41,225 nucleotides of DNA from an uncultured Clostridia bacterium (GTDB lineage: Bacteria > Acidobacteriota > Aminicenantia > UBA2199): NCBI GenBank assembly GCA_964614865.1, contig CAZTNO010000002.1:1-41225 (forward strand), written 5' to 3'. This document shows positions 1 through 41,225 of this stretch, piece after piece; positions within the stretch are counted from its first letter, which is position 1, and each line of letters starts with the position of its first letter. Below the pieces are notes generated by a model. It was not told the origin of the DNA. It ran no database searches and was given only the letters and a program-made list of their open reading frames with translations. The translations under genes were made by a program, and so were the position numbers.

Positions 1-1026
1 GTAGCCGTAGCCTCCGAAGATCTGCACCGCCTCGACGGTAACCCGCATGGCCACATCGGTGGCCATCACCTTGGCCATGGCCGACTCTTTGGAGGCCTTC
101 ATGCCGTGGTCGAGCATCCAGGCCGAACGGTAGACCATCAAGCGGGCGGCTTCGATTTCGGTGGCCATGTCGGCCAGCTTGAAACCGATCACCTGGTTGG
201 CCGAAATCGGTCGGCCGAACTGCACCCGGCCCTGGGCGTAGCGCAACGACTCTTCGTAGGCCGCCCTGGCCACGCCGACGCCACCGGCGCCCACCGCGGG
301 GCGGGCGAAGTCGAGGGTCTTCATGGCGATGATGAAGCCCATCCCCTCGCGGCGCAGGATGTTTTTTGCCGGTACCTTGACTTCGTCGAAGTAGAGCTCG
401 CAGGTGTTGGAGGCGCGATGGCCCATCTTGTTTTCGTGTTTGCCGATGGTGATTCCGGGCAAATCCATGGGGACGATGAAAGCCGACAGCCCCCGGGCAC
501 CCCGGCTGCGGTCGGTCATGGCGAAGACCACGCCGAGCTTGGAGACACCACCGTTGGTGATGAAGGTCTTGGAGCCGTTGATGACGTAGAAATCCCCTTC
601 ACGGCGAGCGGTGGTCTGGATGGCGGCGTTGTCGGAGCCCGCCTCTTTCTCGGTCAGGGCAAAGCAGGAGAAACTCATCTCGCTGGTCAGCGGCTGCAAA
701 AACTCTTTCTTCTGTTCCTCGGAGCCGAACAGCACGATCGGGGTGGTGGCCAGGGTGTTGGCCATCATCGAGGTGTACATGCCGGCGCAGCCCCAGGCCA
801 ACTCTTCGCAAACGACGGCGTTGGTCAGGGCGTCAAACCCGGCGCCACCGCAATTTTCGGGAATACCGGTGGTCAGCAGACCCATCTCGAAGGCTTTTTT
901 CATGATGTCGAAGGGAAACTCGTTCTTCTCGTCGACTTCGATCGCCTTGGGACGCATCTCTTTCTCGGCGAAACGGTGCGTCTCCTCCTTCAGGGCTTGT
1001 TGTTCTTCAGAAAGCAGAAAATCCAT
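1..1026 (-). CDS. acyl-CoA dehydrogenase (N-terminal 342 codons; 3-prime end lies beyond window start)
   Basis: Absent from the supplied ORF track because it runs off the window edge. My own reverse-complement translation from ATG 1026..1024 gives MDFLLSEEQQALKEETHRFAEKEMRPKAIEVDEKNEFPFD...FALTEKEAGSDNAAIQTTARREGDFYVINGSKTFITNGG... The LTExxAGSD and GxKxFITNG motifs are ACAD hallmarks. An AGGAGA SD lies just upstream. The listed plus-strand ORF 106..1065 is its antisense shadow. Confidence 0.85.
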   Translation of the reverse strand, partial: MDFLLSEEQQALKEETHRFAEKEMRPKAIEVDEKNEFPFDIMKKAFEMGLLTTGIPENCGGAGFDALTNAVVCEELAWGCAGMYTSMMANTLATTPIVLFGSEEQKKEFLQPLTSEMSFSCFALTEKEAGSDNAAIQTTARREGDFYVINGSKTFITNGGVSKLGVVFAMTDRSRGARGLSAFIVPMDLPGITIGKHENKMGHRASNTCELYFDEVKVPAKNILRREGMGFIIAMKTLDFARPAVGAGGVGVARAAYEESLRYAQGRVQFGRPISANQVIGFKLADMATEIEAARLMVYRSAWMLDHGMKASKESAMAKVMATDVAMRVTVEAVQIFGGYGY

Positions 1027-1054
1027 GGCTATTCTCCTATAGAAATGGCGGTCT

Positions 1055-3451: not shown

Positions 3452-3496
3452 ACGACAGGGGGGGCCAGCGGAGGGAGGCCTCCGGGCAAGGCCGTT

Positions 3497-3525
3497 TTGA
3501 CAGATCGCCTGGCGACCGTTATAAT
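3497..3525 (+). promoter_or_regulatory. sigma70-type promoter, perfect consensus TTGACA-N17-TATAAT, upstream of the Clp-like ATPase
   Basis: ttgaca at 3497..3502, 17-nt spacer, tataat at 3520..3525, 24 nt before ATG 3549. Confidence 0.6.
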
Positions 3526-3548
3526 TGACTTTTGGGAGCGAGCAACGA

Positions 3549-6470
<2,922 letters not shown>

Positions 6471-9074: not shown

Positions 9075-9971
9075 TCAGCCGGCCCGATGGCCCTTGCGGG
9101 TGAGGACGATGCCCAGCAGGATGATGGCCGCGCCGCCGAGCAGCGAGAGGGTGAGGGCCTCGCCCAGCACCAGGTGGGCGAACAGCAGGCCGATCACCGG
9201 CTGCAAGTTGGAGTAGACCGCGGTCTGGCTGTTGCCCACGCGCCGCACCGAATCGAACCACAGGATCAAGGTCAACGACAGGGCCAGGATGCCCGAGTAG
9301 GCCAGCAGCGCCCAGGTGCCGAGGCTCACCGCCGAAAAATCGACCCGGGTCAGGCTGGGCAGCCCCAGGGGGAGAAACAGCAGGGAGCCGATGCTCATGG
9401 TGAAGGTGGTGAACTTCAGCGGCGAGTAGACCTTGAGCAGCGGGCGCGCCGACACCGAGTAGTGGGCCCACATCAACACGGCTGCGAGTACGGTCAGGTC
9501 GCCCTTCCAGGTGGCCCCCGACAGGGAAAAACCTCCCTGCCTGCCGGCAATCACCAGGTAGAGCCCCAGAAAGGCCAGGCAGATGCCCAACCAGCCTGTC
9601 CAGACGATCCGCTCCTGCTTGAAAAACGAGCTGAGCAGCGAGATCAGCACCGGCGCGGTACCGAACAGGATGGCGGTGTTGGTGGCGGTGGTGCCGGCGA
9701 TGCCCGAGATGAACAGGTACTGGTAGACGGTGTAGCCCGAAAACGACAGCAGCAGGATGCGGGGCCAGTGACAGCGCTCGATCCGCCAGCCCCCCCCCGA
9801 GAACCAGAACCAGCCCAGCAGCACCACCGAGGCCAGGGGCAAGCGGAGGGTGTTGTAGGGCAGGGGGGCGAGTTCACGCAGGGCGAGCTTGACCAGGGTC
9901 AAATTCACCCCCCAGATCGTCACCACCAGGAGCATTTGGCCGCTGTTGCGGATGTTTTGGGAAATCTTCAT
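9075..9971 (-). CDS. EamA/DMT-superfamily transporter
   Basis: About 10 hydrophobic segments in two halves, which is the EamA-like pattern. Start set at ATG 9971 (MKISQNI) because the longer ORF would overlap the grpE promoter region. Confidence 0.7.
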   Translation of the reverse strand: MKISQNIRNSGQMLLVVTIWGVNLTLVKLALRELAPLPYNTLRLPLASVVLLGWFWFSGGGWRIERCHWPRILLLSFSGYTVYQYLFISGIAGTTATNTAILFGTAPVLISLLSSFFKQERIVWTGWLGICLAFLGLYLVIAGRQGGFSLSGATWKGDLTVLAAVLMWAHYSVSARPLLKVYSPLKFTTFTMSIGSLLFLPLGLPSLTRVDFSAVSLGTWALLAYSGILALSLTLILWFDSVRRVGNSQTAVYSNLQPVIGLLFAHLVLGEALTLSLLGGAAIILLGIVLTRKGHRAG

Positions 9972-14380: not shown

Positions 14381-15321
14381 ACGGCCTGCTCGGCAAGTAC
14401 CAGATCGAGAAAAAGCTGGGCTCCGGAGGCTTCGGTACCGTCTACCTGGCCGAAGACACCATGCTCCGGGTGAAGCGGGCCCTCAAGATCCCCCACCGCA
14501 ACGCTGCCCAGCTCGAGAAGATGACCGAAGAGGGGCGCGTGCAGACCCGCCTGCTCGATCATCCCAACATCGTCAAGCTGCTGACCCTCGAGTCCATCGA
14601 CGGCATCTTCGTGATGGTCATGGAGTACATCGAGGGCACCGATCTGGAAAAGATGATCGACGAGCAGGAGACTCTCGACATCTCGGCCGCCCTGCACTAC
14701 CTGCGCCAGATCCTGTCGGCGCTCGAATTCGCCCATAATCACCGCATCCTGCACCGCGACATCCGCCCGTCCAACATCCTGATCACCAAGGCGGGCAACC
14801 AGGTGAAGATCACCGACTTCGGCACCTCCACCCTGCTCGATGACGCCAAGCCGTTCGCCACCACCCGCATCGGCTCCCCCCCCTACATGGCCCCGGAACA
14901 GTTCGAGGGCAAGGCGGTCTTCGCCTCTGACCTCTACTCGGCGGGCTGCCTGTTCTACGAGATGGTCACCGGTTTCCCGCCCATCGTGCTGGCCAACCCG
15001 ATGGAGATCTACAACCGCGCCAGGGCCGGCGATTTCCCCTCGCTGGAGAGCAAAAACCACCGAATTTCTTCGGAATTGAACCGGGTGATCATGAAGGCGC
15101 TGGCCCCCGCCGCCCGCGACCGCTATCCGACCGCCGGCGAATTTCTGGCCGAGTTGGACCGCCAGGAAAACAGGAGCGCCGACATCCACCAGGTGATGGA
15201 GGACATCCACCACCGCATCCAGGTCCGCGAAACCCGGATCGACCACGTGTGCTGGAACTGCCGCAAATCGTTCCCCGCCAGCGGGAGGAACCGCTGCCCG
15301 TACTGCGGGGAAGAGCGATGA
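14368..15321 (+). CDS. small cytoplasmic Ser/Thr protein kinase with C-terminal zinc-ribbon (CxxC...CxxC)
   Basis: GSGGFGTVYLAED, ALKI, HRDIRPSNILI, DFGTS, GSPPYMAPEQ. The C-terminus reads CWNCRKSFPASGRNRCPYCG. Start set at ATG 14368, overlapping the rsmE end by 13 nt. The Arg/Pro-rich extension from 14194 is judged an artefact. Confidence 0.85.
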   Translation: MLELNGLLGKYQIEKKLGSGGFGTVYLAEDTMLRVKRALKIPHRNAAQLEKMTEEGRVQTRLLDHPNIVKLLTLESIDGIFVMVMEYIEGTDLEKMIDEQETLDISAALHYLRQILSALEFAHNHRILHRDIRPSNILITKAGNQVKITDFGTSTLLDDAKPFATTRIGSPPYMAPEQFEGKAVFASDLYSAGCLFYEMVTGFPPIVLANPMEIYNRARAGDFPSLESKNHRISSELNRVIMKALAPAARDRYPTAGEFLAELDRQENRSADIHQVMEDIHHRIQVRETRIDHVCWNCRKSFPASGRNRCPYCGEER

Positions 15322-29393: not shown

Positions 29394-30663
29394 GAACGGC
29401 CGGCTGGTCGATCCCGCCGGACACCTCGACGCCACCCGCGACATCCTGGTGGAAGACGGCCGGGTGAAGAAGATCGACGTCTCCATCAAGGCCCCCGCCG
29501 GGAGTGAGACCATCGATGCCGGCGGATGGGTGGTCGCTCCGGGCTTCATCGACCTGCACTGCCACCTGCGCGAGCCGGGAGGCGAGCACAAGGAAACGAT
29601 CGAATCGGGATGCCGGGCTGCCGCCGCCGGCGGGTACACCACCATCGCCTGCATGCCCAACACTGACCCGGTCAACGACAACCGTTCGGTCACCGAGTTC
29701 ATCCTGTCCCGGGCCCGCCAGGCCGGATTGATCCGCGTCCTGCCCATCGCTGCCATTTCACGGGGTCTGCACGGCGACAACCTTACCGAAATGGCCGACC
29801 TGGTCGCCGGCGGCGCGGTCGCCTTCTCTGACGACGGCCAGTGCGTGATGAAGGCCGACCTGATCCGCAAGGCGCTCGAATACTCCCGCATGCTCGATGT
29901 GCCGATCATCGAACACCCCGAGGATCACTCGATCTCGGCCGATGGCCAGGTCAACGAGGGATTCGTCTCCTACAAGTACGGACTGCGCGGTATCCTCAAC
30001 GCCGCCGAGGAAGTGATCGTCTCCCGCGACCTGATCCTGCAGAAAAGGATCGGCTCCCGCCTCCACCTCACCCACCTCTCCACCGCCGGCTCCATCGAAC
30101 TGGTCCGCAACGCCAAGCAGGCCGGGGTGAAGGTCACCGTTGACGTCACCCCCCACCACCTGCTGCTCAACGAGGAACAGGTCTCCAGGTACGAAACCGT
30201 CTACAAGGTCAAGCCCCCCCTGCGCACCGAAGCCGACCGCCAGACGTTGATCGACGCCCTCCTCGATGGCACGGTCGACTGTATCGCCACCGACCACGCC
30301 CCCCATACCCGCGACGAGAAAGACCGGGAATTCGAATACGCCCCTTTTGGCATGATCGGTCTGGAGACGGCCTTTTCGGTGCTCTACGACCGGCTGGTCG
30401 CCGAGCGCCGCCTGTCGCTGGGACGGCTGATCGAGCTGCTCTCCACCGCCCCGGCGCGCATTCTGGGCCTGGACGATCTGGGCCGGGTGGCGGAGGGTCT
30501 GCCCGCCGACTTGACCCTGCTCGACCTCGACCAACGCTTCCGCATCGACGCCAAAGAGTTCCATTCCAAGGCCAACAACTCCCCCTTCATCGGATGGGAG
30601 GGCAAAGGGGCGGTGGCCATGACCATCGCCGCCGGCAAGATCGTCTACCGCCGTCCGTCCTGA
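29377..30663 (+). CDS. pyrC: dihydroorotase
   Basis: GFIDLHCHLREPG, MPNTDP, HLTHLST, ATDHAPH. It overlaps the pyrB end by 17 nt. Confidence 0.9.
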   Translation: MKLLIKNGRLVDPAGHLDATRDILVEDGRVKKIDVSIKAPAGSETIDAGGWVVAPGFIDLHCHLREPGGEHKETIESGCRAAAAGGYTTIACMPNTDPVNDNRSVTEFILSRARQAGLIRVLPIAAISRGLHGDNLTEMADLVAGGAVAFSDDGQCVMKADLIRKALEYSRMLDVPIIEHPEDHSISADGQVNEGFVSYKYGLRGILNAAEEVIVSRDLILQKRIGSRLHLTHLSTAGSIELVRNAKQAGVKVTVDVTPHHLLLNEEQVSRYETVYKVKPPLRTEADRQTLIDALLDGTVDCIATDHAPHTRDEKDREFEYAPFGMIGLETAFSVLYDRLVAERRLSLGRLIELLSTAPARILGLDDLGRVAEGLPADLTLLDLDQRFRIDAKEFHSKANNSPFIGWEGKGAVAMTIAAGKIVYRRPS

Positions 30664-30690
30664 ACTTCCGCCGCCCGGCTTCGTCTCGCC

Positions 30691-31701
30691 CTAGGCGAAC
30701 TGGGGGTGGCGACTGGCGGCCAGCCGCACCAGACGGCTGCCTAGTTCGCCGTAGGAGAGGCCGATCTGCTCTGCCGCACAAGCGGTGCTGGCGTCGGAGC
30801 TGATATCGGGGTTGGGGTTGATGTCCAGGATGTAGAACACCCCATCGCGCAAGCGGATGTCCAGCCGGGCATAATCGCGGCAACCGAACAGGCGGTAGCA
30901 CCGGAGGCAGCACCGTTTCAGCTCCCGCCGCTGGGCGGGGGTCAAGACGGCAGGGATGATCGTCGAAATGATCTCGTACTGCTTGGACCCGGGGCAAAAC
31001 TTGGCCTCGTAGGTGCAGAGGCGGTCATGGATGTCCACACAGCGCGAAAAGTCCATCTCGGCCGGAGGCAACATCCACGGCGAACGGTTGCCGATCAGTG
31101 AGACGTGGAATTCCCGGCCGTCGATGAAGTCCTCCACGATAACCGGCTCGTTGAAGCAACGCAGGACGTGCTCGATCTGCCGTTCCAGTTCGTGGCGGTT
31201 GAGGACGATCGACTCGGAAGTGATCCCCAGGCTGCAGTGCTCGAAGGCGGGCTTCACGATCGCCGGAAAACGATGCCAATCCCCGGCCCAGGGCCGCTCA
31301 TAGATCGCCCAGGCGGGGGTGGGCAAGCCGTGGGCATCGAGGGTCTCTTTCACCAGGCGCTTGTTTTCGCAACTGCTGAGGGTGTCGGGGTGGGCGCCGG
31401 TGTAGGTCATGTTGCGCTTCTCGAGCACCATGGCCGCCTCGGCTTCACTGTGGGGGAAACCGGGGATCTCCTCGCACAGGTTCATGACAATCCAGTTCTC
31501 GGCGGGAAAATCTGCGAGACGCTCGAGCAGAGTGCTCCCGGCAATCTCCAGCAGGGTGACCGGATGGCCCAGTTGCTCCAGCGAAGAGCGCAGCAACTCG
31601 ATTTCCCTGGCCTGGACCGCTCGCTCCTCGACCGCCCAGGAATGGTCGAGGTTGTACAGCAGGAGGACAGGCAACTCGGCCGCGCTGCGCCACGAAACCA
31701 T
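30691..31701 (-). CDS. ATP-grasp enzyme of the D-Ala-D-Ala-ligase-like family
   Basis: VLLLYNL...GHPVTLL...NLCEE...MTYTGAH...ENKRLVKETLDAHGLPTPAW...PAIVKPAFEHCSLGI...FIDGREFHVSLIG...RLDIRLRDGVFYILDINPNP. Start at ATG 31701. Confidence 0.7.
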   Translation of the reverse strand: MVSWRSAAELPVLLLYNLDHSWAVEERAVQAREIELLRSSLEQLGHPVTLLEIAGSTLLERLADFPAENWIVMNLCEEIPGFPHSEAEAAMVLEKRNMTYTGAHPDTLSSCENKRLVKETLDAHGLPTPAWAIYERPWAGDWHRFPAIVKPAFEHCSLGITSESIVLNRHELERQIEHVLRCFNEPVIVEDFIDGREFHVSLIGNRSPWMLPPAEMDFSRCVDIHDRLCTYEAKFCPGSKQYEIISTIIPAVLTPAQRRELKRCCLRCYRLFGCRDYARLDIRLRDGVFYILDINPNPDISSDASTACAAEQIGLSYGELGSRLVRLAASRHPQFA

Positions 31702-31780
31702 GTTCAGCTCCGCAAAGCGCAACCCCACCAAGGAGCTGGAAAAAAAACCGAGTCCACAGTTGGTTGGATCATATTGGCCT

Positions 31781-31809
31781 GTTTTAAGGTCTATTGGCCG
31801 AAATGTCAA
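31781..31809 (-). promoter_or_regulatory. promoter TTGACA-N17-TAAAAC for the ATP-grasp gene
   Basis: On the minus strand, ttgaca (31809..31804) and taaaac (31786..31781). It is flanked by a TATTGGCC direct repeat at 31772..31779 and 31792..31799. Confidence 0.4.
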
Positions 31810-31908
31810 CCCTGCCCGCACTCTGTTATGCGGCCAGCGGCAGTTTCCGGTCGCCAGGGGGTCGCTTCGACTCTTCCGCCAGGGGAAAGGGGCCCGCGGG
31901 CGGACGAA

Positions 31909-32847
31909 TCAAATCAGCCCTTTGTCTTCGAGTTGGGCGATTTCCGTTTTCAGGTCCACCCCCAACTTTTCCAGGGCAGCAGGCGAAACCCCCAGAGCAC
32001 TCAGCCCATCCAGCAACGAATGATTGCTGGCGCCGCGGAGGGCTCCGTGCTCGAATCCGTTTTCGCGGCAGTAGTCGTTGGCGACAAACAGGACCAGCGC
32101 CGAGCGAACGTTTGGCCCGGTGCCGGCGAAGGGATCCCGCATGTAGCGGAGGCAGTCGACCACCTCGCGGGGCAACCCCCATCGCCGAATGATTTCCAGA
32201 AGCACCTCGCCGTGGTCGAAACCGAGCATTTCCCGCTCCACCTCGATCAACGGGCAATTCTCGGCAAACGAGGTCCGCAGGGCCCGCAGGAACGGGTCAT
32301 GGCGGAATTGATCGACGATCACCAGCCCCAGGTCGTGCAGCAGCCCGCAGGCATAGGCGGTCTCGCCGGAAAGGGCGAACTCGCGCCGGTGGACGAAGCG
32401 GGCCAGCACCGCGGTGGCCACACTGTGCCTCCACAACCGGGCCCGCGCGTAGGTCTCGACGGTGTCCCCGTGGGCGAACAGGTCGCACACTTTCTGGCTC
32501 AACACCAGGCGCAAGGCCGCCTCGAAGCCGATCAGGATGATGGCATCCTCGATGGTGCTGTAGGAACGGCCGCGGGAGTAGAATGCCGAGTTGGCCAAAT
32601 GAAGAATGCGGGCCGCCAGCGGGGGGTCGATCTCGATGATCTGTTTCAGCTCCCGCACCGACGCCCCGGGGCCGGTCAGCACCCCGATCACCTCGGACAC
32701 CACCCGGCCGATCGAAGAGAGTTGGCCGCCTTCGAGCTCGGTCAGCAACCCCGCCAGGCCGTCCCCTTGCGATTGCTTTTCCGTTTTTCCCCCCCGGTTT
32801 CGTCGCACGCCCCGCAATGGTGTACCAAAACCGGAAAAATAAATCAA
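31909..32847 (-). CDS. HDOD-domain signalling protein
   Basis: ELKQIIEIDPPLAARILHLANSAFY...IEDAIILIGF...HSVATAVLARF...ACGLLHDLG is the HDOD pattern. The TTG start at 32847 is uncertain. Confidence 0.7.
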   Translation of the reverse strand: MIYFSGFGTPLRGVRRNRGGKTEKQSQGDGLAGLLTELEGGQLSSIGRVVSEVIGVLTGPGASVRELKQIIEIDPPLAARILHLANSAFYSRGRSYSTIEDAIILIGFEAALRLVLSQKVCDLFAHGDTVETYARARLWRHSVATAVLARFVHRREFALSGETAYACGLLHDLGLVIVDQFRHDPFLRALRTSFAENCPLIEVEREMLGFDHGEVLLEIIRRWGLPREVVDCLRYMRDPFAGTGPNVRSALVLFVANDYCRENGFEHGALRGASNHSLLDGLSALGVSPAALEKLGVDLKTEIAQLEDKGLI

Positions 32848-32889
32848 CCAAGGCCCGGCCGCCTCCAGTTTTTCGGGAGGGTCCGGGGG

Positions 32890-33174
32890 TCAGCTCGCCG
32901 TGACCCGGATCAGGCCGTCTTCAGAAAGGCGACCGAGAAAGGCGAGCACATCGACGTCGATCTGATCCCGCCCTCCGGCATACTCGGTCTCCAGCTGGGC
33001 GCAGAGATCGGCCACCGGCAAAGGGGTTGCCAGCAGCTCCCAGATGCGCCGGCCGATGTCGTCCAGGGTGAGGTAGTTGTTGCCCGCCATGTTGAGGATC
33101 ACCAGCTCGTCGTCCACCGGCGTCGTCGCCGCCTCGCCGTTTCGCACCACGATCGCCGTCATGTCCAGGGCCAT
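32890..33174 (-). CDS. PqqD-family protein (RiPP recognition element; lasso B1-like)
   Basis: 94 aa: ...VDDELVILNMAGNNYLTLDDIGRRIWELLATPLPVADLCAQLETEY...DVLAFLGRLSEDGLI is the typical PqqD/RRE pattern. An AAGGAG SD precedes ATG 33174. Confidence 0.8.
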   Translation of the reverse strand: MALDMTAIVVRNGEAATTPVDDELVILNMAGNNYLTLDDIGRRIWELLATPLPVADLCAQLETEYAGGRDQIDVDVLAFLGRLSEDGLIRVTAS

Positions 33175-33202
33175 GGGCACTCCTTGCTTGGAATGGGGTA
33201 GT

Positions 33203-34063
33203 TTACACGGGCTCGCCCTGTTCGTCCAGATACCCGAAGCGGCGCATCGTCTCCCCGTGGGCGGCAATCAGCCGCTTCGACAAAACGGGGCTCAACTCTT
33301 GCCGCCACCCCCCGGCAACGCCGCGGCGAAAGAACGCGGTCGACTTGCCGGGTTTCTCGGGAAATCCCACCTCGGACTCCTGGCGTCGCAGTTCAGCGAA
33401 ACTAGAAAACGTTACCGCTTTCTCCAGGTTGGTTTTGTTCCAGGGCAGACCGAGAAAACGGACCACCTCGCCGAACACCTTCGGCGTATCACCGAGAAGA
33501 TCCTCGTAGCGCACCGTCAGGCAGGGCAAGCCGGAACGGTCCAGCCAGGAGCGAACATGCCCGCTCCAGTCCCCGGTGAATTGCCGCAACTGGTCGGCCA
33601 ATTCACCCACCGAGCGACCCAGGGCGAACCGGGCATCGCAGAGTTGGGCTACTGCCCGCTCGAGGTCGATGGCGTAGTGGTTTGCCAGCGAAGCGGCCAG
33701 GTCGAGCGGGTTGCGCACGATGTAAACCACCCCGCGGGTGACATCGCCCGGAAAGAGGGGATCGCCCGCCGGGGTTTGTTTCCAGGCATCGTGGGTCTTC
33801 ATGTAGATCGGTTGGGGCTCCTCTGCCGCCATCCGGCGATACACCTCGGGCCGCAAGCACTCGATGGTCTCGTCGTCCAACGTGGAGGCCTCGACTCCCA
33901 CCCATTCGTCGAACCAGATGCGGGCACTGGCCACCGGACCGCCTTCCAGCCGCCGGTCGATGGCCGCAGGAGCGTCTTGATCGCGCAGGTAATTGGTCAA
34001 CAGGATGCGTACCCAGGTGTTGCCCGACTTCGGGTAAGAGGCGAGCCAGTGAATCTTACCCAT
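33203..34063 (-). CDS. PAPS-dependent sulfotransferase-family protein
   Basis: WLASYPKSGNTWVRILL is the 5-prime-PSB motif (PKSGxTW). VVYIVRNPLDLAASL is the 3-prime-PB motif (RNPxD). The ATG overlaps the upstream stop region by 8 nt. Confidence 0.8.
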   Translation of the reverse strand: MGKIHWLASYPKSGNTWVRILLTNYLRDQDAPAAIDRRLEGGPVASARIWFDEWVGVEASTLDDETIECLRPEVYRRMAAEEPQPIYMKTHDAWKQTPAGDPLFPGDVTRGVVYIVRNPLDLAASLANHYAIDLERAVAQLCDARFALGRSVGELADQLRQFTGDWSGHVRSWLDRSGLPCLTVRYEDLLGDTPKVFGEVVRFLGLPWNKTNLEKAVTFSSFAELRRQESEVGFPEKPGKSTAFFRRGVAGGWRQELSPVLSKRLIAAHGETMRRFGYLDEQGEPV

Positions 34064-34949
34064 GGAGGATGCGCCCGGCGACCTCGTCGAGGCTCCAGGA
34101 CGACCGCGGGCGCTGCAGCCGGAACACCTGGAGTTGCTGGCTGAGGGCGGCAAACAGCAAAAACCGTTCCGGGTGTTCGCCGGGGTGCATGGGGCCGTAG
34201 ACACAGGATTGCAGGGCGGCGAATTTCTCGCCGCCGGTGAGGGGGATCAAGACCACCTGGTCGGTGGGTGCTGGTTCCAACAGAAAGAGGCGATGGAGGG
34301 GGACCGGTTTTTCGGCCATCGCCCCGCGATGGGGGGCCACAACCTTGATTTTGCGGAGCGGGTTGCGGGGCAAGGAGTTTACGTCCTGCCCCAGGGCCGT
34401 GGCTGCGTCTTGGCACAGGTTCAACTTGGCCATGCCAGGCAAGGCCTCGACCCGCTCATCGGCTCCCCGCTGGACGACGGTGACGTCATCGCTCACCATC
34501 GTCCCGCCGCGAGAAAGCAAAACCCCCTGGGTGGTACTCTTGCCCGCCCCGGAGGCTCCGGCCAGAACCACCCCCCGATCCGCCACCGCCACCGTGGAAG
34601 CGTGCAGCACCACCTGTCCCAACGAACGCATCAGGGCCGCGAGGACATGGGAGAGAAAGTGCGCCGCCAGCAGGTCATCCTCTCCGTCGGGGTTCCGCTC
34701 CAGGATCACCCGCCCCCCCGATTCCACCAGGAAACGCCCTGCCCGTCGCCCCCCCTTCAACAGGTAGCTGCCGGGAGCAGCCTGCCAGTTTTCGCCTTGA
34801 CTGGTCGGATTTGCCAGCGATCGGGGTACCGCCCCCTCGGCGACCATGAGATCGGGGGTTCCCGTCCAAGAGAGCTCGGCCAATTGGCCGCAACGGAACG
34901 GGAGCGACACCTTGTGACCGTACAGGGAATAGAGATGACGCTCGCTCAT
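34056..34949 (-). CDS. HPr-kinase/phosphorylase C-terminal-domain-like kinase, copy 2
   Basis: VLHASTVAVADRGVVLAGASGAGKSTT...GGTMVSDDVTVV shows a P-loop plus xxDD as in the HprK catalytic domain. The ATG at 34949 overlaps the upstream TGA (ATGA). Confidence 0.75.
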   Translation of the reverse strand: MSERHLYSLYGHKVSLPFRCGQLAELSWTGTPDLMVAEGAVPRSLANPTSQGENWQAAPGSYLLKGGRRAGRFLVESGGRVILERNPDGEDDLLAAHFLSHVLAALMRSLGQVVLHASTVAVADRGVVLAGASGAGKSTTQGVLLSRGGTMVSDDVTVVQRGADERVEALPGMAKLNLCQDAATALGQDVNSLPRNPLRKIKVVAPHRGAMAEKPVPLHRLFLLEPAPTDQVVLIPLTGGEKFAALQSCVYGPMHPGEHPERFLLFAALSQQLQVFRLQRPRSSWSLDEVAGRILHG

Positions 34950-35782
34950 CGCACCCCCGCCGCCACCATGTCTGCCAACTCGCCGGCCCGCCACACCCCG
35001 CGCGGCCTTTTCAACTGGAAAAAGCGCGCACTGCCGGCCAGGGCGGATAATCCCCCCAGGCAGGCCCCCCGGTCGAGCAGCACGTCGGCGATATGGCTGT
35101 TGAAGAGAAGCCTCCCGAGGCCGCGAAAGCGCGCCGCGCCCCGGGGTTCGTGGCATACGATCGGGTCGGAACTGTACACCGAGAGGGCGAAGACCGCCCG
35201 CACCGGGATCGGCTCGGGGTTGGCCACCTCGGTAAAAACCACGTGGTGCCGGTGGTCGAAAAAGGGGGGGGGCGGTTGACTGGATAGACCCAGATTTTCC
35301 AGAGAGCCCGTCCACAACACCGCCTCGGGAACCCCGGGAGCCACCCGAGCCCTTCCCCGGGTGTCGCGGGTCACCAGAGCCAAATCGTCCCCCAGCAACG
35401 TTGCCCCGCGCCGGGTCAGCTCCACCGCCAGCGACGACTTGCCACACCCCGAATCTCCGGCCAGCAGCACCGCATCGCCGTCGATCTTCACCGTTGCCGC
35501 ATGCAGCGCCAGCCAACCGCGCTGGCAAGCCAGCGCCGCCAGTGGTGCCAAACCCAGAAAGTAGCCGATGCGCTCGTCAGTGGCTCCTGGCGAGGGATCG
35601 ATCGTCACGAGTTCCCCCCCCTCGACCAGAAAGCGGGCAACGCCCGGCACCTGGAGCAGGAAGCTGCGATGCGATGCCTGCCAGAGGACGCCGCCAGCCT
35701 CGGCAGCCTCGAGCACCCTGGGCACCGCGGCCTGGCGGACCGGGATATCGCCAAAAGGGGGGGGGAGGGCAAGAGGGTTCAT
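34946..35782 (-). CDS. HPr-kinase/phosphorylase C-terminal-domain-like kinase, copy 1
   Basis: LHAATVKIDGDAVLLAGDSGCGKSSLAVEL...GATLLGDDLALV. The ATG at 35782 overlaps the stop of the Asn-synthetase homolog (ATGA). Confidence 0.75.
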   Translation of the reverse strand: MNPLALPPPFGDIPVRQAAVPRVLEAAEAGGVLWQASHRSFLLQVPGVARFLVEGGELVTIDPSPGATDERIGYFLGLAPLAALACQRGWLALHAATVKIDGDAVLLAGDSGCGKSSLAVELTRRGATLLGDDLALVTRDTRGRARVAPGVPEAVLWTGSLENLGLSSQPPPPFFDHRHHVVFTEVANPEPIPVRAVFALSVYSSDPIVCHEPRGAARFRGLGRLLFNSHIADVLLDRGACLGGLSALAGSARFFQLKRPRGVWRAGELADMVAAGVR

Positions 35783-37647
35783 GGCGGGGCCAGACGATGA
35801 TCCTCGGGCCAGCGGGCAAAGAACTGGTTGACGAACAGCCCGGCCATGATGCCCCGGGTCAGCACGCAGATCGCATCGTGAAACACCCCTGGAGAATCGC
35901 CGGCCCGCATCGCCGCCCAAACCTTCCCCAGCTGGGCGGCATCGACGTACTCTGAGGCCGGGCCGCGGGCAATCTCGGCGAGAGCCTCCTCCACCTCGGC
36001 GGCGCATGCCCGCAGCCGGGGAACCAGGTCGCCCGCCTGTCGCCCGCGCCGCAGGTTCAAACGAACCTCGTCGGGGAGCCGCCCCTTCATCGCGGCGCGG
36101 ATCAGCCAGCGGTCGAGACCGGTCTGCGGGTCGAGAAACACCCAGTCGGGGACCGACAGGCAGAACTGGAGGACCCGGGGATCGCCGGTCGGGTCGCGGT
36201 ACTCGAGGCCCCCGGCATGCTGCTTGGCGGCGTACAGGGCCCCGATCATGGAACGCCCCGGCTTGAGGATGCGCAGACGGGTTTGCCCCGGCACGGCGGA
36301 AAAGACCTCATCCGGATCCTCCATGCGTCGTTGTGCCAGCCGCAACCTGCGGGCGAAGTCGGGGTGGATGGCACTGCCCCGCAAGCCGTCCCGGGAACTC
36401 CGGCGCAGCCGGTGCCAGCGCGACAGCAAACCGACGGGCACCGCCCGTTTCACCCGTTCCCGGGCCCACTTCCGCCAACCGAGGCCCTGGATCTGGGCAA
36501 ACCACGAATGACTGAAGGGATCGCCGGTCCACGAGATGCCGGCATTGCCGAGCTGTCCGGTCAAGAGAACACCCGCCCCGGCCGCCCGGGCGCTCTCGTC
36601 CAAGGCCAGAATCCAGTACAAATTCCCCGCCGCGTGCCCCGGCTCGCCGGTGATGGCGAGCATGCGGCGGATGGCGGCGATGGGGGTGATCTGAGTTGCC
36701 GCCACCGGGAAATGGTCGATGTTGCCGGCCAGGCGGGCGGTTGCCGCGGCCAGGGGGTATTCGTCGCCAAAACGGCGGCCCACGTATCCCCGGGTTTCGT
36801 ACTGGGGCACCGAGGTGAAGGCGGGCAGGCGCCGCCCCTCCTCCCGCAACCACAGGGCCGCAGTCGCGGCCACCGATCCCGAATCGAGGCCACCGGAGAG
36901 CATGGCCGCCACCCCGCTTCCCCCTGCCCCGCGAGGCGGACGCAACCGGGCCCGCACCGCCTCGTCGAACACCGCCAAAAAAGGCTCGACGTAGTCTTCC
37001 CGGCGGGGTAGCCGCAACAGCGGGGTCTCTTCCAGCCGCCAGTAGCATCGCGGTTCGAGTCGATCCGCGGTCACCCGTAGGCAGTGGGCCGGGGGGAGAC
37101 GACAAAGCGGCGAGGTGATGGTCCGCTCGCCATGGTAATTGGGCCAGGAGGTCAGCACTTGGGCCAGGTAGAGCTCGTCAAGCTTCAGCGGGGAGAGGTT
37201 CAGGGTCAGCAGGGATTTGGCCGAACTGGCAAAAGCGAACCCCCGTTCGCAGGCCAGATAGTGGATAGCGGTATTGCCGAAGTGGTCGCGGGCCAGGAAC
37301 AGTTGCCGCTCCCGGGGATGCCAGGCGGCAAAAGCCCAGTCGCCGTAAACGCGCCCCGGGCACTCTTCGCCCCAGCGAAGGTACGCCATGCGGAGCAAGG
37401 CGCCGTCGGTCAGCGAGAGGCATTCGCCAGCGGAAAGGCCCAGGGCGTGGGCCAGTTCCTCGCGGTTGTCGACCCGGCCCTCGGCCAGAAACACGAAACC
37501 GTCGCCAGCCAGCCCTGCCACCCGGGGCGACCCGGCAAAACAACCCTTGGCCCACAGGGCGCTCCCGTCCGCGCACAAACCCGCCAGCGCGGCCAAGATC
37601 TCTGTGCTTACGGGTGTTCCGTCACGCTGGAAAAAACCGAACAACAA
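35779..37647 (-). CDS. asparagine-synthetase-homologous lasso-peptide cyclase-like protein
   Basis: MLSGGLDSGSVAA is the PP-loop. The Asn-synthase-like N-domain (LFLARDHFGNTAIHY) lacks an N-terminal Cys nucleophile. About 620 aa, directly downstream of a 49-codon ORF. Start uncertain: TTG 37647 or 37644 behind a GGAAAGGAGA SD; the track start is TTG 37671. Confidence 0.8.
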   Translation of the reverse strand: MLFGFFQRDGTPVSTEILAALAGLCADGSALWAKGCFAGSPRVAGLAGDGFVFLAEGRVDNREELAHALGLSAGECLSLTDGALLRMAYLRWGEECPGRVYGDWAFAAWHPRERQLFLARDHFGNTAIHYLACERGFAFASSAKSLLTLNLSPLKLDELYLAQVLTSWPNYHGERTITSPLCRLPPAHCLRVTADRLEPRCYWRLEETPLLRLPRREDYVEPFLAVFDEAVRARLRPPRGAGGSGVAAMLSGGLDSGSVAATAALWLREEGRRLPAFTSVPQYETRGYVGRRFGDEYPLAAATARLAGNIDHFPVAATQITPIAAIRRMLAITGEPGHAAGNLYWILALDESARAAGAGVLLTGQLGNAGISWTGDPFSHSWFAQIQGLGWRKWARERVKRAVPVGLLSRWHRLRRSSRDGLRGSAIHPDFARRLRLAQRRMEDPDEVFSAVPGQTRLRILKPGRSMIGALYAAKQHAGGLEYRDPTGDPRVLQFCLSVPDWVFLDPQTGLDRWLIRAAMKGRLPDEVRLNLRRGRQAGDLVPRLRACAAEVEEALAEIARGPASEYVDAAQLGKVWAAMRAGDSPGVFHDAICVLTRGIMAGLFVNQFFARWPEDHRLAPP

Positions 37648-37732
37648 GGATCTCCTTTCCTGCCCCGGCAAAAAGAACTATTCAGAGACCGACGGGGGCA
37701 CCCGCCCGAAGATCCCCGGTCATCTGAAAGCA

Positions 37733-37790
37733 TTTCGCGCGCGAAAACCCGCTTCGCGAATCAGAAAGCGAAACACGCGGCCCTGGCCGC
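37733..37790 (-). terminator. candidate partial terminator / attenuator hairpins between the precursor gene and the cyclase gene
   Basis: Minus-strand RNA has GCGGC-CAGG-GCCGC (37790..37777) followed by GUGUUUCGCUUUCUGAUU. A second imperfect hairpin spans 37749..37780. A 14-nt palindrome tttcgcgcgcgaaa lies at 37733..37746. Confidence 0.3.
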
Positions 37791-37806
37791 TTGGAGAGGG
37801 TTGGCC

Positions 37807-37956
37807 TCAGGTGGGGGAATGGAAACTGCCGGATGACCCGTCTGTGACAGATCCACCCATAAACAGCGTCCGCTTCAATTCGACGGTGCCGATCTCGGGA
37901 GCGTGCCAGGCGGGGCGGAGATCGGTTTCAAAAAGTGGGGTCGTTTGCGGTTCCAT
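37807..37956 (-). CDS. candidate lasso-type RiPP precursor peptide (49 aa)
   Basis: My own translation: MEPQTTPLFETDLRPAWHAPEIGTVELKRTLFMGGSVTDGSSGSFHSPT. An AGGAGGA SD lies 4 nt before the ATG, with a TTGACT-17-TATATT promoter upstream. The leader-like WxxPxI...Tx motif is followed by a core with Asp at position 8 and a Ser/Thr-rich tail. Confidence 0.65.
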   Translation of the reverse strand: MEPQTTPLFETDLRPAWHAPEIGTVELKRTLFMGGSVTDGSSGSFHSPT

Positions 37957-37987
37957 ACGTCCTCCTGAGGTCAAGGGGCTTTTGCCC

Positions 37988-38016
37988 AATATAGCAAAAC
38001 CTCCCGGGAAAGTCAA
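37988..38016 (-). promoter_or_regulatory. promoter TTGACT-N17-TATATT immediately upstream of the precursor-peptide ORF
   Basis: On the minus strand, ttgact (38016..38011) and tatatt (37993..37988), about 30 nt before ATG 37956, in an AT-rich 225-nt gap. Confidence 0.55.
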
Positions 38017-38181
38017 AAAAAGTGCGATGCACATTGGCATTGGATCGAGGCTTCAGGTTCGGAACTGCACCAAGGGCGATCGAGGTGTCCCTTATTATAT
38101 TTGCCCTGGCCCTCTCGCCAGAGGGGGCATGTCAGCCGGCAATCGGGGCAAACGATTCGCCGATGTCGCCGCAATCCATGA

Positions 38182-39405
38182 TCACTTCAGCATCCAGTCC
38201 ATCAGGGCCGCGGCCTGGCCTGGCCTGGAAGTGCGGCGGGCCTTACCCGCCAGCATCGACTTCAACCCGGCGACGTTGCGAGCGAGGATTCGCCAGCCAT
38301 ACTGCGGATAATACCACCAGATTCGCAGGGAATCTGCCGCCACCGGAAAGAGTGCCGCGACCATTTGCCGCGAGGGAAAAAAGCGGCTCCGGAGCAGGGC
38401 GAATCGATCACGCCACCCCTTCCGGCCGAAGAAGAGGACCAGGTTGGGGTTGGGCCCCCCGTTTCGCTGGCCTCGCCAGTTCAGCAGCACGGTTTCTCGG
38501 GCTTCCTGGGCCAGCGCTTCGGGCATCCCCCGGGGGAGCAATCCGGCGATGGCGGCATCGGGCACCGCAGCCTGGAGCAGATCCCGAGCCAGCAAAAGGG
38601 GGACCCCGACCGAACGCGCCACCCCCATTTTCTCTGCCCGCTCGACCAGACGCGCCCAGTCCGGAGAAACCCGGGCGATGAATGTGGCAATGTCGCAGAG
38701 CGGCCGCAGCCCGAACTCGAAGCGGTGGATGGTGGCGTGGGCTCCGAGATGGATCAACTGGTCTTCGGGGGCGAACACCCTCACCTCGGTGCCGGCAATC
38801 GTGGCGGGCACGGCGTCTGCCATCATCCCCCGGCGGTCGAGCTGGAAAGGATAGTCGGGGGGGAGCAACTCCCAGTGGACTTCCAGCAGGGTGTGGCTGG
38901 AAGGTTCCAGATAATGGAACTCGTTCAACTCGGCGGGGGGGGTGCTCCCGAACTCCCGGCGCTGGAAACCTTTCTCTGTAAGGATCGCGTCGGCTTGTTC
39001 CAGGTGCTCGCGGGCGACCAGGATGTCGATGTCGCCCATCACCCGCAGGGCGATGCTCGAATAGACCGCGGTGGCCAGATAGGCCCCCTTGAGCACGATC
39101 ACCGGCACGCCGGCCCGGGAGAGGCCCTCCAGCACCGGAGCCAGGGCATAAAAACGCCGCAGGTTGATGGCGGCATTGCGCCGGTGCTCCTGTCGCAATC
39201 GCGCGCCAAGCCCGGCCGGGATCCCGGACGGGGCGGGACCGAGGCCGATCCGGTGGTGAAGGAGGGGGATCACCCGGTGTTTGCTCGCCTCGGCAGCGAC
39301 CGCCGCCCACTCTTCCGCAGTCCAGGCGGGGGACGATCCACTTTCGATCTCGCTACGGGCGGAAAAACCAAGCAAGCCAAGCAAGCGTTCCTGAGCGACA
39401 GTCAT
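38182..39405 (-). CDS. uncharacterised nucleotidyltransferase-family protein (NTP_transf_5-like)
   Basis: About 407 aa. ...VIVLKGAYLATAVYSSIALRVMGDIDILV...LEVHWEL... looks like a nucleotidyltransferase-fold G-x-x-D-x-D motif as in the family often found beside lasso/PqqD genes (from memory). The ATG overlaps the ABC stop (ATGA). Confidence 0.6.
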   Translation of the reverse strand: MTVAQERLLGLLGFSARSEIESGSSPAWTAEEWAAVAAEASKHRVIPLLHHRIGLGPAPSGIPAGLGARLRQEHRRNAAINLRRFYALAPVLEGLSRAGVPVIVLKGAYLATAVYSSIALRVMGDIDILVAREHLEQADAILTEKGFQRREFGSTPPAELNEFHYLEPSSHTLLEVHWELLPPDYPFQLDRRGMMADAVPATIAGTEVRVFAPEDQLIHLGAHATIHRFEFGLRPLCDIATFIARVSPDWARLVERAEKMGVARSVGVPLLLARDLLQAAVPDAAIAGLLPRGMPEALAQEARETVLLNWRGQRNGGPNPNLVLFFGRKGWRDRFALLRSRFFPSRQMVAALFPVAADSLRIWWYYPQYGWRILARNVAGLKSMLAGKARRTSRPGQAAALMDWMLK

Positions 39406-41225
39406 TGCGCTTTTCCTGGCAACGTCACCTCCTCCGCCAAACCCTCCCGGTGTTGCGTCCGGATCAACCGGCTGTAGGGGCCATTGTTGCCGAGCAATTG
39501 GTCATGGGTCCCGACTTCCGCCACCCGACCTGCTTCCAGCACCACGATCTGATCGGCGTCCCGGATCACCGACAACCGGTGGGCGATGATCAGGCGGGTT
39601 TTTGGTTTTCCGCATTCCGCCAGCACCTGGTGAACCGCCTGCTCGGTGGGTCCATCCAGTTCGCTGGTGGCCTCGTCGAGGATCAGCAACTCTGCCCGCT
39701 CGATCAGCAGGGCCCGAGCCAAGGCGACCCTTTGCCGCTGCCCCCCCGAAAGGCGCATTCCCCGTTCCTCGAGCACGGTATCGTAGCCCAGGGGCAGGGA
39801 GTGGATGAAGTCGTGGATCTGGGCTTTCCGGCAGGCCGTTTCGATTTCCCGATCGGTCGCTTCGGGGCGGGCGAAGCGCAAGTTTTCCCGGACGCTGGCG
39901 TGAAACAGGAACACGTCCTGGCTGACCACGGCCACTTTTCGACGCCAGGTGCCGATGTCCAGCCGGCGCAGGTCGACCCCGTCGACCACCACCTCCCCCT
40001 CGGTCGGTTCGTACAGCCGGGTCAGCAGGTTGACCAGACTCGACTTGCCGGCGCCCGAAGCACCGACGACGGCCGTGGTTTTCCCGACGGGGATGGTCAG
40101 GTTAATTCCCCGCAGCGCCGGGGGATCGTTTGCCGTATAGCGGAAGGAAACATTGCGCCACTCGATCGCCTGGCAAAGGTGCCCGAAGGGGATTTCCCCC
40201 TCCGGGTGGCCCCGGGCTGCGCCCATGGCGATGAACGCCTCGATCTCTTCGAGCAGGGGGCCGACCTGCAGCAATTGGGCGTGAAGGGTGGCCAGGCCAT
40301 TCACCGGGGCCACCATGCGGAAAGCGATCACCAGGAACAGCACGAGCGAAGAGACGGTCGCCCGTGAATTTCCGAACAGGAGGAAAGACCCCGCCACCAT
40401 CAGGAAGGCCAGCGAAGCCGTGATCAACAGGGTGAAAGCCGGACGGGAGCGGCTGGCCATCCGGTCGGAGCGAAAGCCGGCTTCGTGCATCGACTTCAGG
40501 GCGTCGCGGGTTCTGGCCAGACTCCACTCGCTCTGGTCGAAGAGGTGGATGAGCTTCATGGCCGCCATGTCTTCCTGAAGCATGGACAGGAAAGCCTTGG
40601 ACAAATCGACGGTGCGCCGCCCCGCCGCCCGCAACCGGGCTCCCAAAAGGGGGCGAAGAACAAGGGCGATCGGTGCCAGCACCAGCACGGAGACGAGGGT
40701 GAGCGGCCACGAAAGCCACACCGCCAGCGACAGGCAAGCGGCGAGGATCACCAGGTGGGCGATGCCCTGGCTGGCCGTAAGCACCAGCCGCCCCACCTGA
40801 AAACTGTGGGCCCCGACCACCATCAACATTCCTCCCGCCCGCTCCTGCTGCAACACCTGGATGGGCAGCCGATGCAACGCCGCCAGCAGGCGCAGCTGCA
40901 CCTCTTGCTCGACCGTCCGGCGTAGCATCAGGCTCTGGATGCTTTGCAGGTACTGCAACGAACTGCTGGCCAGGGTGACCAGCAGCAGTGCCAGCGCCGC
41001 CCAGCGGATGCGCGCCGGCAAGGCCAGAGCTCCGATCTCCCGGGCCCATCCCCCCACCCAGGGGATATTGTGACCCAGCTCGCCTTTCCCCCCCCCTTCC
41101 AGAAAGAGCAGGATCCCGCCGGACCGGAACAGTCCCAGCACCTGGGAGGAATCCCGCACCACGAAGACCAGCGGCAGGAGCAGCAGGCAGGCCCACAGAA
41201 CGGGCTTCAGGTCCTTGAAAGCGCC
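39402..41225 (-). CDS. ABC exporter, fused permease + ATPase (McjD-like position); 5-prime end beyond window
   Basis: GASGAGKSS (Walker A), LSGGQRQRVALARAL (signature), LLILDEATSELD (Walker B), preceded by about 6 TM helices. The reading frame stays open to the window end (...GAFKDLKPVLWACLLLLPLVFV...), so the GTG at 41162 is probably internal. Confidence 0.85.
   Translation of the reverse strand, partial: GAFKDLKPVLWACLLLLPLVFVVRDSSQVLGLFRSGGILLFLEGGGKGELGHNIPWVGGWAREIGALALPARIRWAALALLLVTLASSSLQYLQSIQSLMLRRTVEQEVQLRLLAALHRLPIQVLQQERAGGMLMVVGAHSFQVGRLVLTASQGIAHLVILAACLSLAVWLSWPLTLVSVLVLAPIALVLRPLLGARLRAAGRRTVDLSKAFLSMLQEDMAAMKLIHLFDQSEWSLARTRDALKSMHEAGFRSDRMASRSRPAFTLLITASLAFLMVAGSFLLFGNSRATVSSLVLFLVIAFRMVAPVNGLATLHAQLLQVGPLLEEIEAFIAMGAARGHPEGEIPFGHLCQAIEWRNVSFRYTANDPPALRGINLTIPVGKTTAVVGASGAGKSSLVNLLTRLYEPTEGEVVVDGVDLRRLDIGTWRRKVAVVSQDVFLFHASVRENLRFARPEATDREIETACRKAQIHDFIHSLPLGYDTVLEERGMRLSGGQRQRVALARALLIERAELLILDEATSELDGPTEQAVHQVLAECGKPKTRLIIAHRLSVIRDADQIVVLEAGRVAEVGTHDQLLGNNGPYSRLIRTQHREGLAEEVTLPGKAQ

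Follow-up and report, generated by a model that had tools for sequence, protein, structure and literature searches.

The window, by which we mean the whole 41,225-nt stretch of DNA analysed here, carries a group of eight neighbouring genes that all lie on the minus strand and follow one another, in the direction of transcription, in the order D-N-A-C-K1-K2-ST-B1.

39402..41162 as listed, minus strand: ABC exporter (D; PF00005, PF00664), its frame open to the contig end at 41225
38182..39405, minus strand: NTP_transf_5 nucleotidyltransferase (N; PF14907, E = 2.4e-56; GDIDILV motif)
37807..37956, minus strand: precursor gene (A), 49 codons and a stop, identified by translation, leave-one-out profile and coding-frame substitution test
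35779..37671, minus strand: asparagine-synthase-like lasso cyclase (C; PF00733, PF13537, PF13522)
34946..35776, minus strand: HPr-kinase-like kinase 1 (K1; PF07475, HprK_rel_A/B, ScmC and HPr kinase structures; P-loop GDSGCGKS)
34056..34931, minus strand: HPr-kinase-like kinase 2 (K2; PF07475, about 30% identical to K1; P-loop GASGAGKS)
33203..34063, minus strand: PAPS-type sulfotransferase (ST; PF00685, Sulfotransfer_1)
32890..33174, minus strand: PqqD-type RRE (B1; PF05402, E = 9e-17)

The gene adjacent to the small precursor is an asparagine-synthase-like cyclase (PF00733) that scores 252 bits against NCBIfam model NF033535, under its 525-bit cut-off; cyclase relatives are 50-61% identical, and the closest in a collection of 5.8 billion proteins (61%) belongs to the locus that we call L095. 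It is followed by two paralogous kinases with PF07475 and HprK_rel_A/B matches, the kinase type of paeninodin-like clusters, and by a sulfotransferase whose closest solved relatives are the glycopeptide sulfotransferases Teg12, Teg14 and StaL and whose start is likely M48 of a long ORF, with an 8-nt overlap with K2 as in L095. The catalytic motifs are intact throughout: SGGLDS in the cyclase, PKSGNTW and RNPLD in the sulfotransferase, DID in the nucleotidyltransferase and the P-loops of both kinases. B1 is a PqqD-type RRE protein for which NF033536 (lasso_PqqD_Bac) is the best NCBIfam model (53.8 bits, under the cut-off), and its best PDB matches are 9x90_B, a lasso PqqD chaperone, and TbiB1.

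Past B1 lie a terminator-like hairpin (32861..32845, minus strand), an HDOD gene (31909..32847, minus strand) and an ATP-grasp gene. HDOD/HD homologues, about 27% identical, also stand just upstream of the precursor genes in two acidobacterial-type loci (L019, 1186..1755; L089, 546..1037), and the HDOD gene may either be a regulatory gene that recurs beside such clusters or lie there by chance.

Within the precursor locus the following features were delineated.

37988..38016, minus strand: sigma-70-like promoter (-35 TTGACT, 17-nt spacer, TG-extended -10 TATATT; 10/12 matches)
37961..37966, minus strand: Shine-Dalgarno sequence AGGAGG, read from the sequence, with a 4-nt spacer to the ATG at 37956
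37864..37956, minus strand: leader peptide, residues 1-31, with W17(-15), P20(-12), I22(-10), T30(-2) and L31(-1), from alignment, family statistics and the literature register
37810..37863, minus strand: core peptide FMGGSVTDGSSGSFHSPT, with a predicted F1-D8 isopeptide ring and the family-conserved G4, S5, D8, G9, G12 and S13
37774..37793, minus strand: short GC-rich hairpin, an inverted repeat directly past the precursor stop, then a U-rich stretch

Read on the minus strand, 37956..37807 encodes the leader and core MEPQTTPLFETDLRPAWHAPEIGTVELKRTL/FMGGSVTDGSSGSFHSPT, that is, the full 49-codon product MEPQTTPLFETDLRPAWHAPEIGTVELKRTLFMGGSVTDGSSGSFHSPT followed by a stop. This agrees exactly with the translation given in the initial annotation, whose residue numbering (W17, P20, I22, T30, L31, F32, D39) was also correct, and which had rightly observed that the ORF is hidden inside a longer call: the 49 codons form the C-terminal part of a 77-aa ATG ORF at 37807..38040 (minus strand). 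The strong expression context claimed for the ORF was likewise borne out, as it is preceded both by AGGAGG and by the cluster's only strong sigma-70-like promoter on that strand, with no second site of such strength on the minus strand within 30500..41225 (the 10.7-kb cluster). The hairpin past the stop may be a weak attenuator, although this assignment is putative, and the RNA between precursor and cyclase folds no better than its shuffles (z = -0.03). Large plus-strand ORFs overlap the precursor locus without support of their own and probably reflect the high G+C content (63%).

A single match to the pattern [WY]xxPx[ILVM]-x7-T-x8-[DE] was obtained when all six frames of the window were translated, as compared with a mean of 0.04 matches in 100 base shuffles. 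No NCBIfam or Pfam model matches the precursor, and a search of the 49-aa peptide against the 5.8-billion-protein collection returned the window's own entry as the sole match, which is uninformative on novelty since short ORFs are rarely called.

Relatives of the precursor were collected through the cyclase. A cyclase scan of species-representative genomes gave 14 loci, 80 further loci came from metagenomes scanned with an alignment of cyclases, and look-ups of two cyclase homologues added L095, L096 (the genome of Geotalea uraniireducens Rf4) and L097 (a separate assembly with the same cluster), for a total of 97 loci fetched. Small ORFs homologous to the window peptide adjoin the cyclase in about 60 of the 97 and yield 61 distinct cores; they lie nearly always on the cyclase's strand, usually upstream of it, and many loci have more than one copy, with a maximum of five in L004; the cyclases beside them are 43-61% identical to that of the window. 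The loci are assigned to Acidobacteriota, Desulfuromonadaceae, Geotalea, Chloroflexota, Solirubrobacterales, Armatimonadota and others, and their operons typically run A(n)-C-K-K-ST-B1-B2, N and D being close by.

Across the family the leader ends in W(-15)-[HR]-x-P(-12)-x-[IVL](-10)-[TS]-x-[I]-[DE]-[IL]-[KR]-[RQ]-T(-2)-[ML](-1) and the core reads x-x-x-G4-[S/A]5-x-x-D8-G9-x-x-G12-[S/T]13, followed by a variable remainder. The comparison proposed in the initial annotation thus had a positive outcome: the small ORFs beside orthologous cyclases keep the WxxPx[IVL] motif, Thr(-2), Met/Leu(-1) and the Asp at core position 8. An acidic residue (D/E) occupies core position 8 in 55 of the 61 cores and position 9 in three; G4 is found in 50/61, S/T5 in 35/61 and S/T13 in 38/58, while the residue at -1 is M or L in 56/61. 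The invariance of W, P and T was partly imposed by the profile and pattern with which the sequences were collected, whereas the counts for D8, G4, S5 and S13 are free of such selection; as the relatives are phylogenetically related, all these counts represent non-independent events.

When 782 six-frame segments were searched with a profile of 64 relatives from which the window sequence had been left out, the window ORF ranked first at E = 2e-12 and the runner-up had E = 0.21. Further, 62% of the single-base codon differences among the relatives are synonymous in the precursor frame vs. 25% and 14% in the two shifted frames. Together with the conservation of the family, the leave-one-out score and the excess of synonymous changes in frame indicate, at the level of sequence comparison, that the 49 codons constitute a genuine gene, which is subject to purifying selection and belongs to a large family.

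The leader contains W17-H-A-P20-E-I22, which conforms to the RRE-binding motif [Y/W]xxPx[L/V/I/F/A] as defined in PMC13381572, and W17 provides the aromatic residue, mostly Trp, found at -15 in paeninodin-like leaders; the Trp that opens the motif hardly ever varies among paeninodin-like precursors (PMC13381572). In the crystal complex of the PbaA leader with PbaB1, hydrophobic pockets accommodate W-15, P-12 and L-10, and the beta sheet is lengthened by residues -9 to -7 (PMC13381572). PbaB1 Gly42 is reported to help Bacillota paeninodin RREs reject Tyr-type leaders. The window B1, in contrast, carries Asp at this discriminating position, as does TbiB1, so that the window RRE would pair with a Trp-type leader without the Bacillota-specific feature.

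The paeninodin precursor PadeA is MKKQYSKPSLEVLDVHQTM/AGPGTSTPDAFQPDPDEDVHYDS (PMC11594732), which bears out the version given in the initial annotation (MKKQYSKPSLEVLDVHQTM/AGPG...). In a MAFFT alignment the window leader matches PadeA without gaps from the aromatic residue through T-M, and P20 and T30 are invariant in all ten aligned sequences, PadeA included; the paeninodin-like spacing proposed for this leader therefore holds residue for residue. T30 is the penultimate Thr(-2), an established recognition element for leader removal, and PadeB1 together with PadeB2 cuts PadeA to release a core predicted to begin right after T-M (PMC5067487). By homology to PadeA the cut would fall after Leu31, making Phe32 residue 1 and Asp39 residue 8 of the core, which places the predicted acceptor within the 7-9 residues described for lasso peptide rings. 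The family alignment and the PadeA register thus support the earlier assignment of Thr to -2 and of the cleavage to Leu31, and the acidic residue at position 8 in most cores supports the 18-aa core with an F1-D8 macrolactam. A ring formed from the conserved Gly4 was also considered and rejected, as Gly4-Asp8 would comprise five residues, below the 7-9 of lasso peptides.

Phe1 had been described as atypical, and this stands with respect to characterised lasso peptides, among which we found none with Phe1 in the literature searched, but not within the family. Position 1 is the least constrained ring position of the 61 cores (F 11, A 10, N 8, L 7, S 6, I 4, G 4 and H 3, with M, K, V, Y, T and W rarer), and since Phe is the most frequent first residue, Phe1 is normal here; among the cores from two-kinase plus sulfotransferase clusters, Leu and Phe are the most frequent first residues (8/41 each). 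Bulky first residues are known from fusilassin and cellulassin (Trp1) and halolassin (Tyr1) (bioRxiv 10.1101/2020.11.25.399105), and Asn1 of metanodin was reported as a first in 2025 (PMC12670498). These peptides, with Trp1-Glu9 rings in fusilassin and cellulassin and a Tyr1-Glu8 ring in halolassin, resemble the window core in their large or non-canonical first ring residue; they differ in that they stem from unrelated cyclase lineages, lack kinase/sulfotransferase tailoring and in no case have Phe1. The broad tolerance at core position 1 would be useful for engineering.

Based on these findings we consider it very probable that the ORF encodes the precursor of a class II lasso peptide of the kinase-tailored, paeninodin-like branch, within a sub-family whose clusters are organised as A(n)-C-K-K-ST-B1-B2(-N/-D).

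The one component of such clusters that is missing here is B2, the transglutaminase-like leader peptidase (Transglut_core3), which was detected in the 41-kb window neither by tblastn with several B2 proteins nor with a 10-sequence B2 profile (best E = 0.19); the initial annotation does not mention this absence, which has no bearing on the identity of the precursor ORF. B2 lies directly beside the PqqD gene in about 45 related loci, and also in the closest relative, L095 (N-A-C-K-K-ST-B1-B2, with B2 at 14751..15209), while its expected site in the window, 32848..32889, is taken by the terminator-like hairpin and the HDOD gene. Maturation would therefore need a protease encoded elsewhere, or else the cluster is crippled. 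The latter possibility, a decaying remnant in which the precursor is intact and the leader peptidase has been lost, so that no lasso peptide is made, draws on precisely this gap and on the unrelated gene that fills it; we regard it as unlikely. The remaining genes are of full length and have kept their catalytic motifs, the precursor retains every conserved position together with strong expression signals, L027 likewise has no B2 next to PqqD, and pseudomycoidin is made without B1/B2 in two hosts (PMC6993621). Moreover, the ABC exporter frame meets no stop before the contig end, which lies 63 nt beyond the listed start of that gene (41163..41225), so the assembly may have truncated the exporter at its N-terminus and lost any gene that precedes it, and B2 could sit just outside the contig or elsewhere in the genome. 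An exact-sequence look-up of the nucleotidyltransferase found no other contig.

A genuine precursor might also be cut one residue later, after Phe32, to give an M2-D8 ring of seven residues or, more generally, a ring beginning at family position 2. This position is most often Gly (20/61), G, S or A together account for 34/61 cores there vs. 20/61 at position 1, and seven-residue lasso rings do exist (xanthomonins). The outlier L049, with Asp at core position 10, would then form an ordinary 9-residue ring, although its sequence fits an insertion as well as a later cut. Yet such a cut would leave Thr at -3, against its established recognition at -2, and would break with the PadeA register, in which the alignment is gapless through T-M and the core is predicted to follow directly; the window core, moreover, has Met at position 2, which is no more usual a first residue than Phe. 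We find this reading decidedly improbable.

Even less probable, to the point of being very hard to sustain, is a linear phosphorylated or sulfated product like those of the LPP family, with no lasso at all. LPP clusters share the RRE, the HprK-like kinase, the NTP transferase, the transporter and a Y/WxxP leader (PMC13381572), and the absence of B2 would be compatible with the use of another protease. They are, however, without a cyclase and with a SipW-like peptidase (PMC13381572), whereas in the window, as in nearly all relatives, the gene immediately after the precursor encodes a full-length lasso cyclase, and no scanned cluster gene matched a signal peptidase family. Further, the acceptor Asp kept at position 8 in 55/61 cores would have no rationale in a linear peptide.

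The idea that the 77-aa ORF (37807..38040) is the real gene and the 49-aa start arbitrary is scarcely tenable and was rejected on the positions of the expression signals and on its unconserved extension: it is the longest ATG ORF in frame, but the only promoter-like site (37988..38016) sits inside it, downstream of its ATG, so that a transcript from this promoter would exclude the long call and favour the 49-codon gene, the Shine-Dalgarno sequence precedes the internal ATG, the leader of the closest relative has 32 residues vs. 31 in the window, and the extra 28 residues (MPMCIALFLTFPGGFAILGKSPLTSGGR) have no counterpart in relatives.

With the ORF taken as a lasso precursor cut after Leu31, the cluster can be compared with known systems, of which paeninodin from Paenibacillus dendritiformis (PadeA) and PbaA/PbaB1 share its register: an aromatic residue at -15, Pro at -12, an aliphatic residue at -10, Thr at -2 and Met/Leu at -1. 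Further features common to paeninodin and the window cluster are the split B1 RRE, tailoring by an HPr-kinase-like enzyme and an ABC exporter. Paeninodin differs, however, in its A1-D9 ring and its long acidic tail ending in the phospho-acceptor Ser, as opposed to the predicted F1-D8 ring and short Gly/Ser-rich tail of the window peptide, and in its gene order, C-A-K-B1-B2-D vs. D-N-A-C-K-K-ST-B1, the window having two kinases and a sulfotransferase.

The psm cluster of Bacillus pseudomycoides, which makes pseudomycoidin, combines a kinase with an uncharacterised NTP transferase, as does the window. That transferase, PsmN, is needed for the addition of hexose to the phosphate, and bulky groups have been proposed as a lock for a tail without good plugs (PMC6993621). 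Pseudomycoidin differs in having its C-terminal Ser modified, an A1-D9 ring, a single kinase and no sulfotransferase. In BsfA/BsfK of Bradymonas sediminis, where an N gene is also present, the HprK-like kinase BsfK phosphorylates ring Ser3 of the linear precursor with stimulation by B1, a precedent for phosphorylation away from the C-terminus; BsfA, on the other hand, has Ile at -2 and YxxPxL at -17/-14/-12, and its cluster has one kinase and no sulfotransferase.

A predicted counterpart is the Gura_1351 region of Geotalea (Geobacter) uraniireducens Rf4, which belongs to the same sub-family, with cyclases 55% and 51% identical to that of the window, an operon C-K-K-ST-B1-B2 and the precursors ...KKTM/LSTGSVNDGDGSTNEG and ...KRTM/AGASVALDSSLFTTH. 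Unlike the window it has B2, and its first core residues are Leu and Ala vs. Phe; it is known from prediction, with no product reported. In this genome (L096, CP000698.1 1578840..1600759) each of two cyclases has a family precursor, and K-K-ST-B1-B2 follows the second only; after the first come genes for an acetyltransferase and for three proteins with a phage-tail-collar domain. Clusters with HPr kinase and sulfotransferase in G. uraniireducens, Pelobacter and Desulfobacca were noted by genome mining in 2012-2014, when in most cases their precursors could not be conclusively annotated (PMC4289311). The window precursor thus belongs to a cluster type that earlier genome mining had flagged and for which we found no characterised product in the literature searched.

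The kinase of the paeninodin, ThcoK/SyanK and pseudomycoidin systems acts on the C-terminal Ser of the linear precursor. The initial annotation had considered the hydroxyl-rich tail of the window core to fit the kinases, and the five Ser/Thr that it counted are indeed present (S41, S42, S44, S47, T49); the C-terminal hydroxyl, however, is not conserved. The window core ends in Thr instead of the Ser acceptor, and the 41 cores from loci with two kinases and a sulfotransferase end in G (6), S (6), T (6), L (5), I (4) and others, so that phosphorylation of a C-terminal Ser in the paeninodin mode is probably inapplicable to this family. What is conserved in the same 41 cores is Ser5 (25/41) and Gly12-Ser/Thr13 (18/41), and from this, together with the unconserved C-terminus, we infer internal hydroxyls as targets, which in the window peptide would be Ser36 (core position 5) and Ser44 (core position 13), possibly with Ser41 and Ser42.

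In the confirmed single-kinase relatives without a sulfotransferase, L032, L036 and L041, the cores all end in Ser (3/3; e.g. KGPNANTDGDGSPAS). This small sample suggests that the extra kinase and the sulfotransferase go with a shifted modification site. Four similar cores outside this confirmed set, from L038, L056, L062 and L088, also end in Ser.

By analogy with these families, we would expect a pathway in which the leader docks on the PqqD protein B1 and the two HPr-kinase-like enzymes phosphorylate core hydroxyls of the linear peptide, likely Ser5 and Ser13 rather than the C-terminus. The sulfotransferase would add sulfate, and the PsmN-like nucleotidyltransferase might place a hexose on the phosphate. 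A B2 cysteine protease would then cut after Leu31, upon which the cyclase would adenylate the side chain of Asp39 and join it to the amine of Phe32, closing an F1-D8 ring of eight residues through which the tail would pass; Phe14/His15, the bulky modifications or both could serve as plugs, and the ABC transporter would export the product.

More tentatively, and with more doubt than belief, we propose that the sub-family makes the first sulfated, doubly tailored lasso peptides. These would have cores of 14-18 residues, a nearly free first residue (often Phe or Leu) and plug-poor, Gly/Ser-rich tails, the thread being held by phosphate, sulfate or phospho-hexose groups installed at Ser5 and Gly12-Ser13 before cyclisation, possibly with a non-B2 protease in this organism. 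Sulfation, if true, would be a modification unreported for lasso peptides, as we found neither a sulfated lasso peptide nor a product of the two-kinase plus sulfotransferase cluster type in the literature searched.

For this widespread type of lasso cluster, with two kinases, a sulfotransferase and a nucleotidyltransferase, the analysis assigns a precursor, a predicted cleavage site and a predicted ring acceptor, and the family alignment predicts that any residue may stand at position 1, that Asp8 is the acceptor and that Ser5 and Ser13 are candidate modification sites. The interest therefore lies less in Phe1 than in the family picture of a free first residue, short Gly/Ser-rich cores, internal Ser and the tailoring set.

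Two further observations concern individual relatives. In L095, positions 1..6093 hold a second cyclase, Sulfotransfer_1 genes (two upstream and a weaker match downstream), a PqqD gene and a divergent small ORF, MENKIETTEKKEWQAPLLTVIDIESETNGAPLGTASADGLGYS, which has a WxxP leader with other spacing to the Thr. In L001, the precursor at 9475..9615 ends early (…KQTF/SGSGCRY) in comparison with the otherwise identical precursor at 3735..3929 of L025 (…KQTF/SGSGAAIDGSSGSLFV), which looks like a frameshift or an assembly error.
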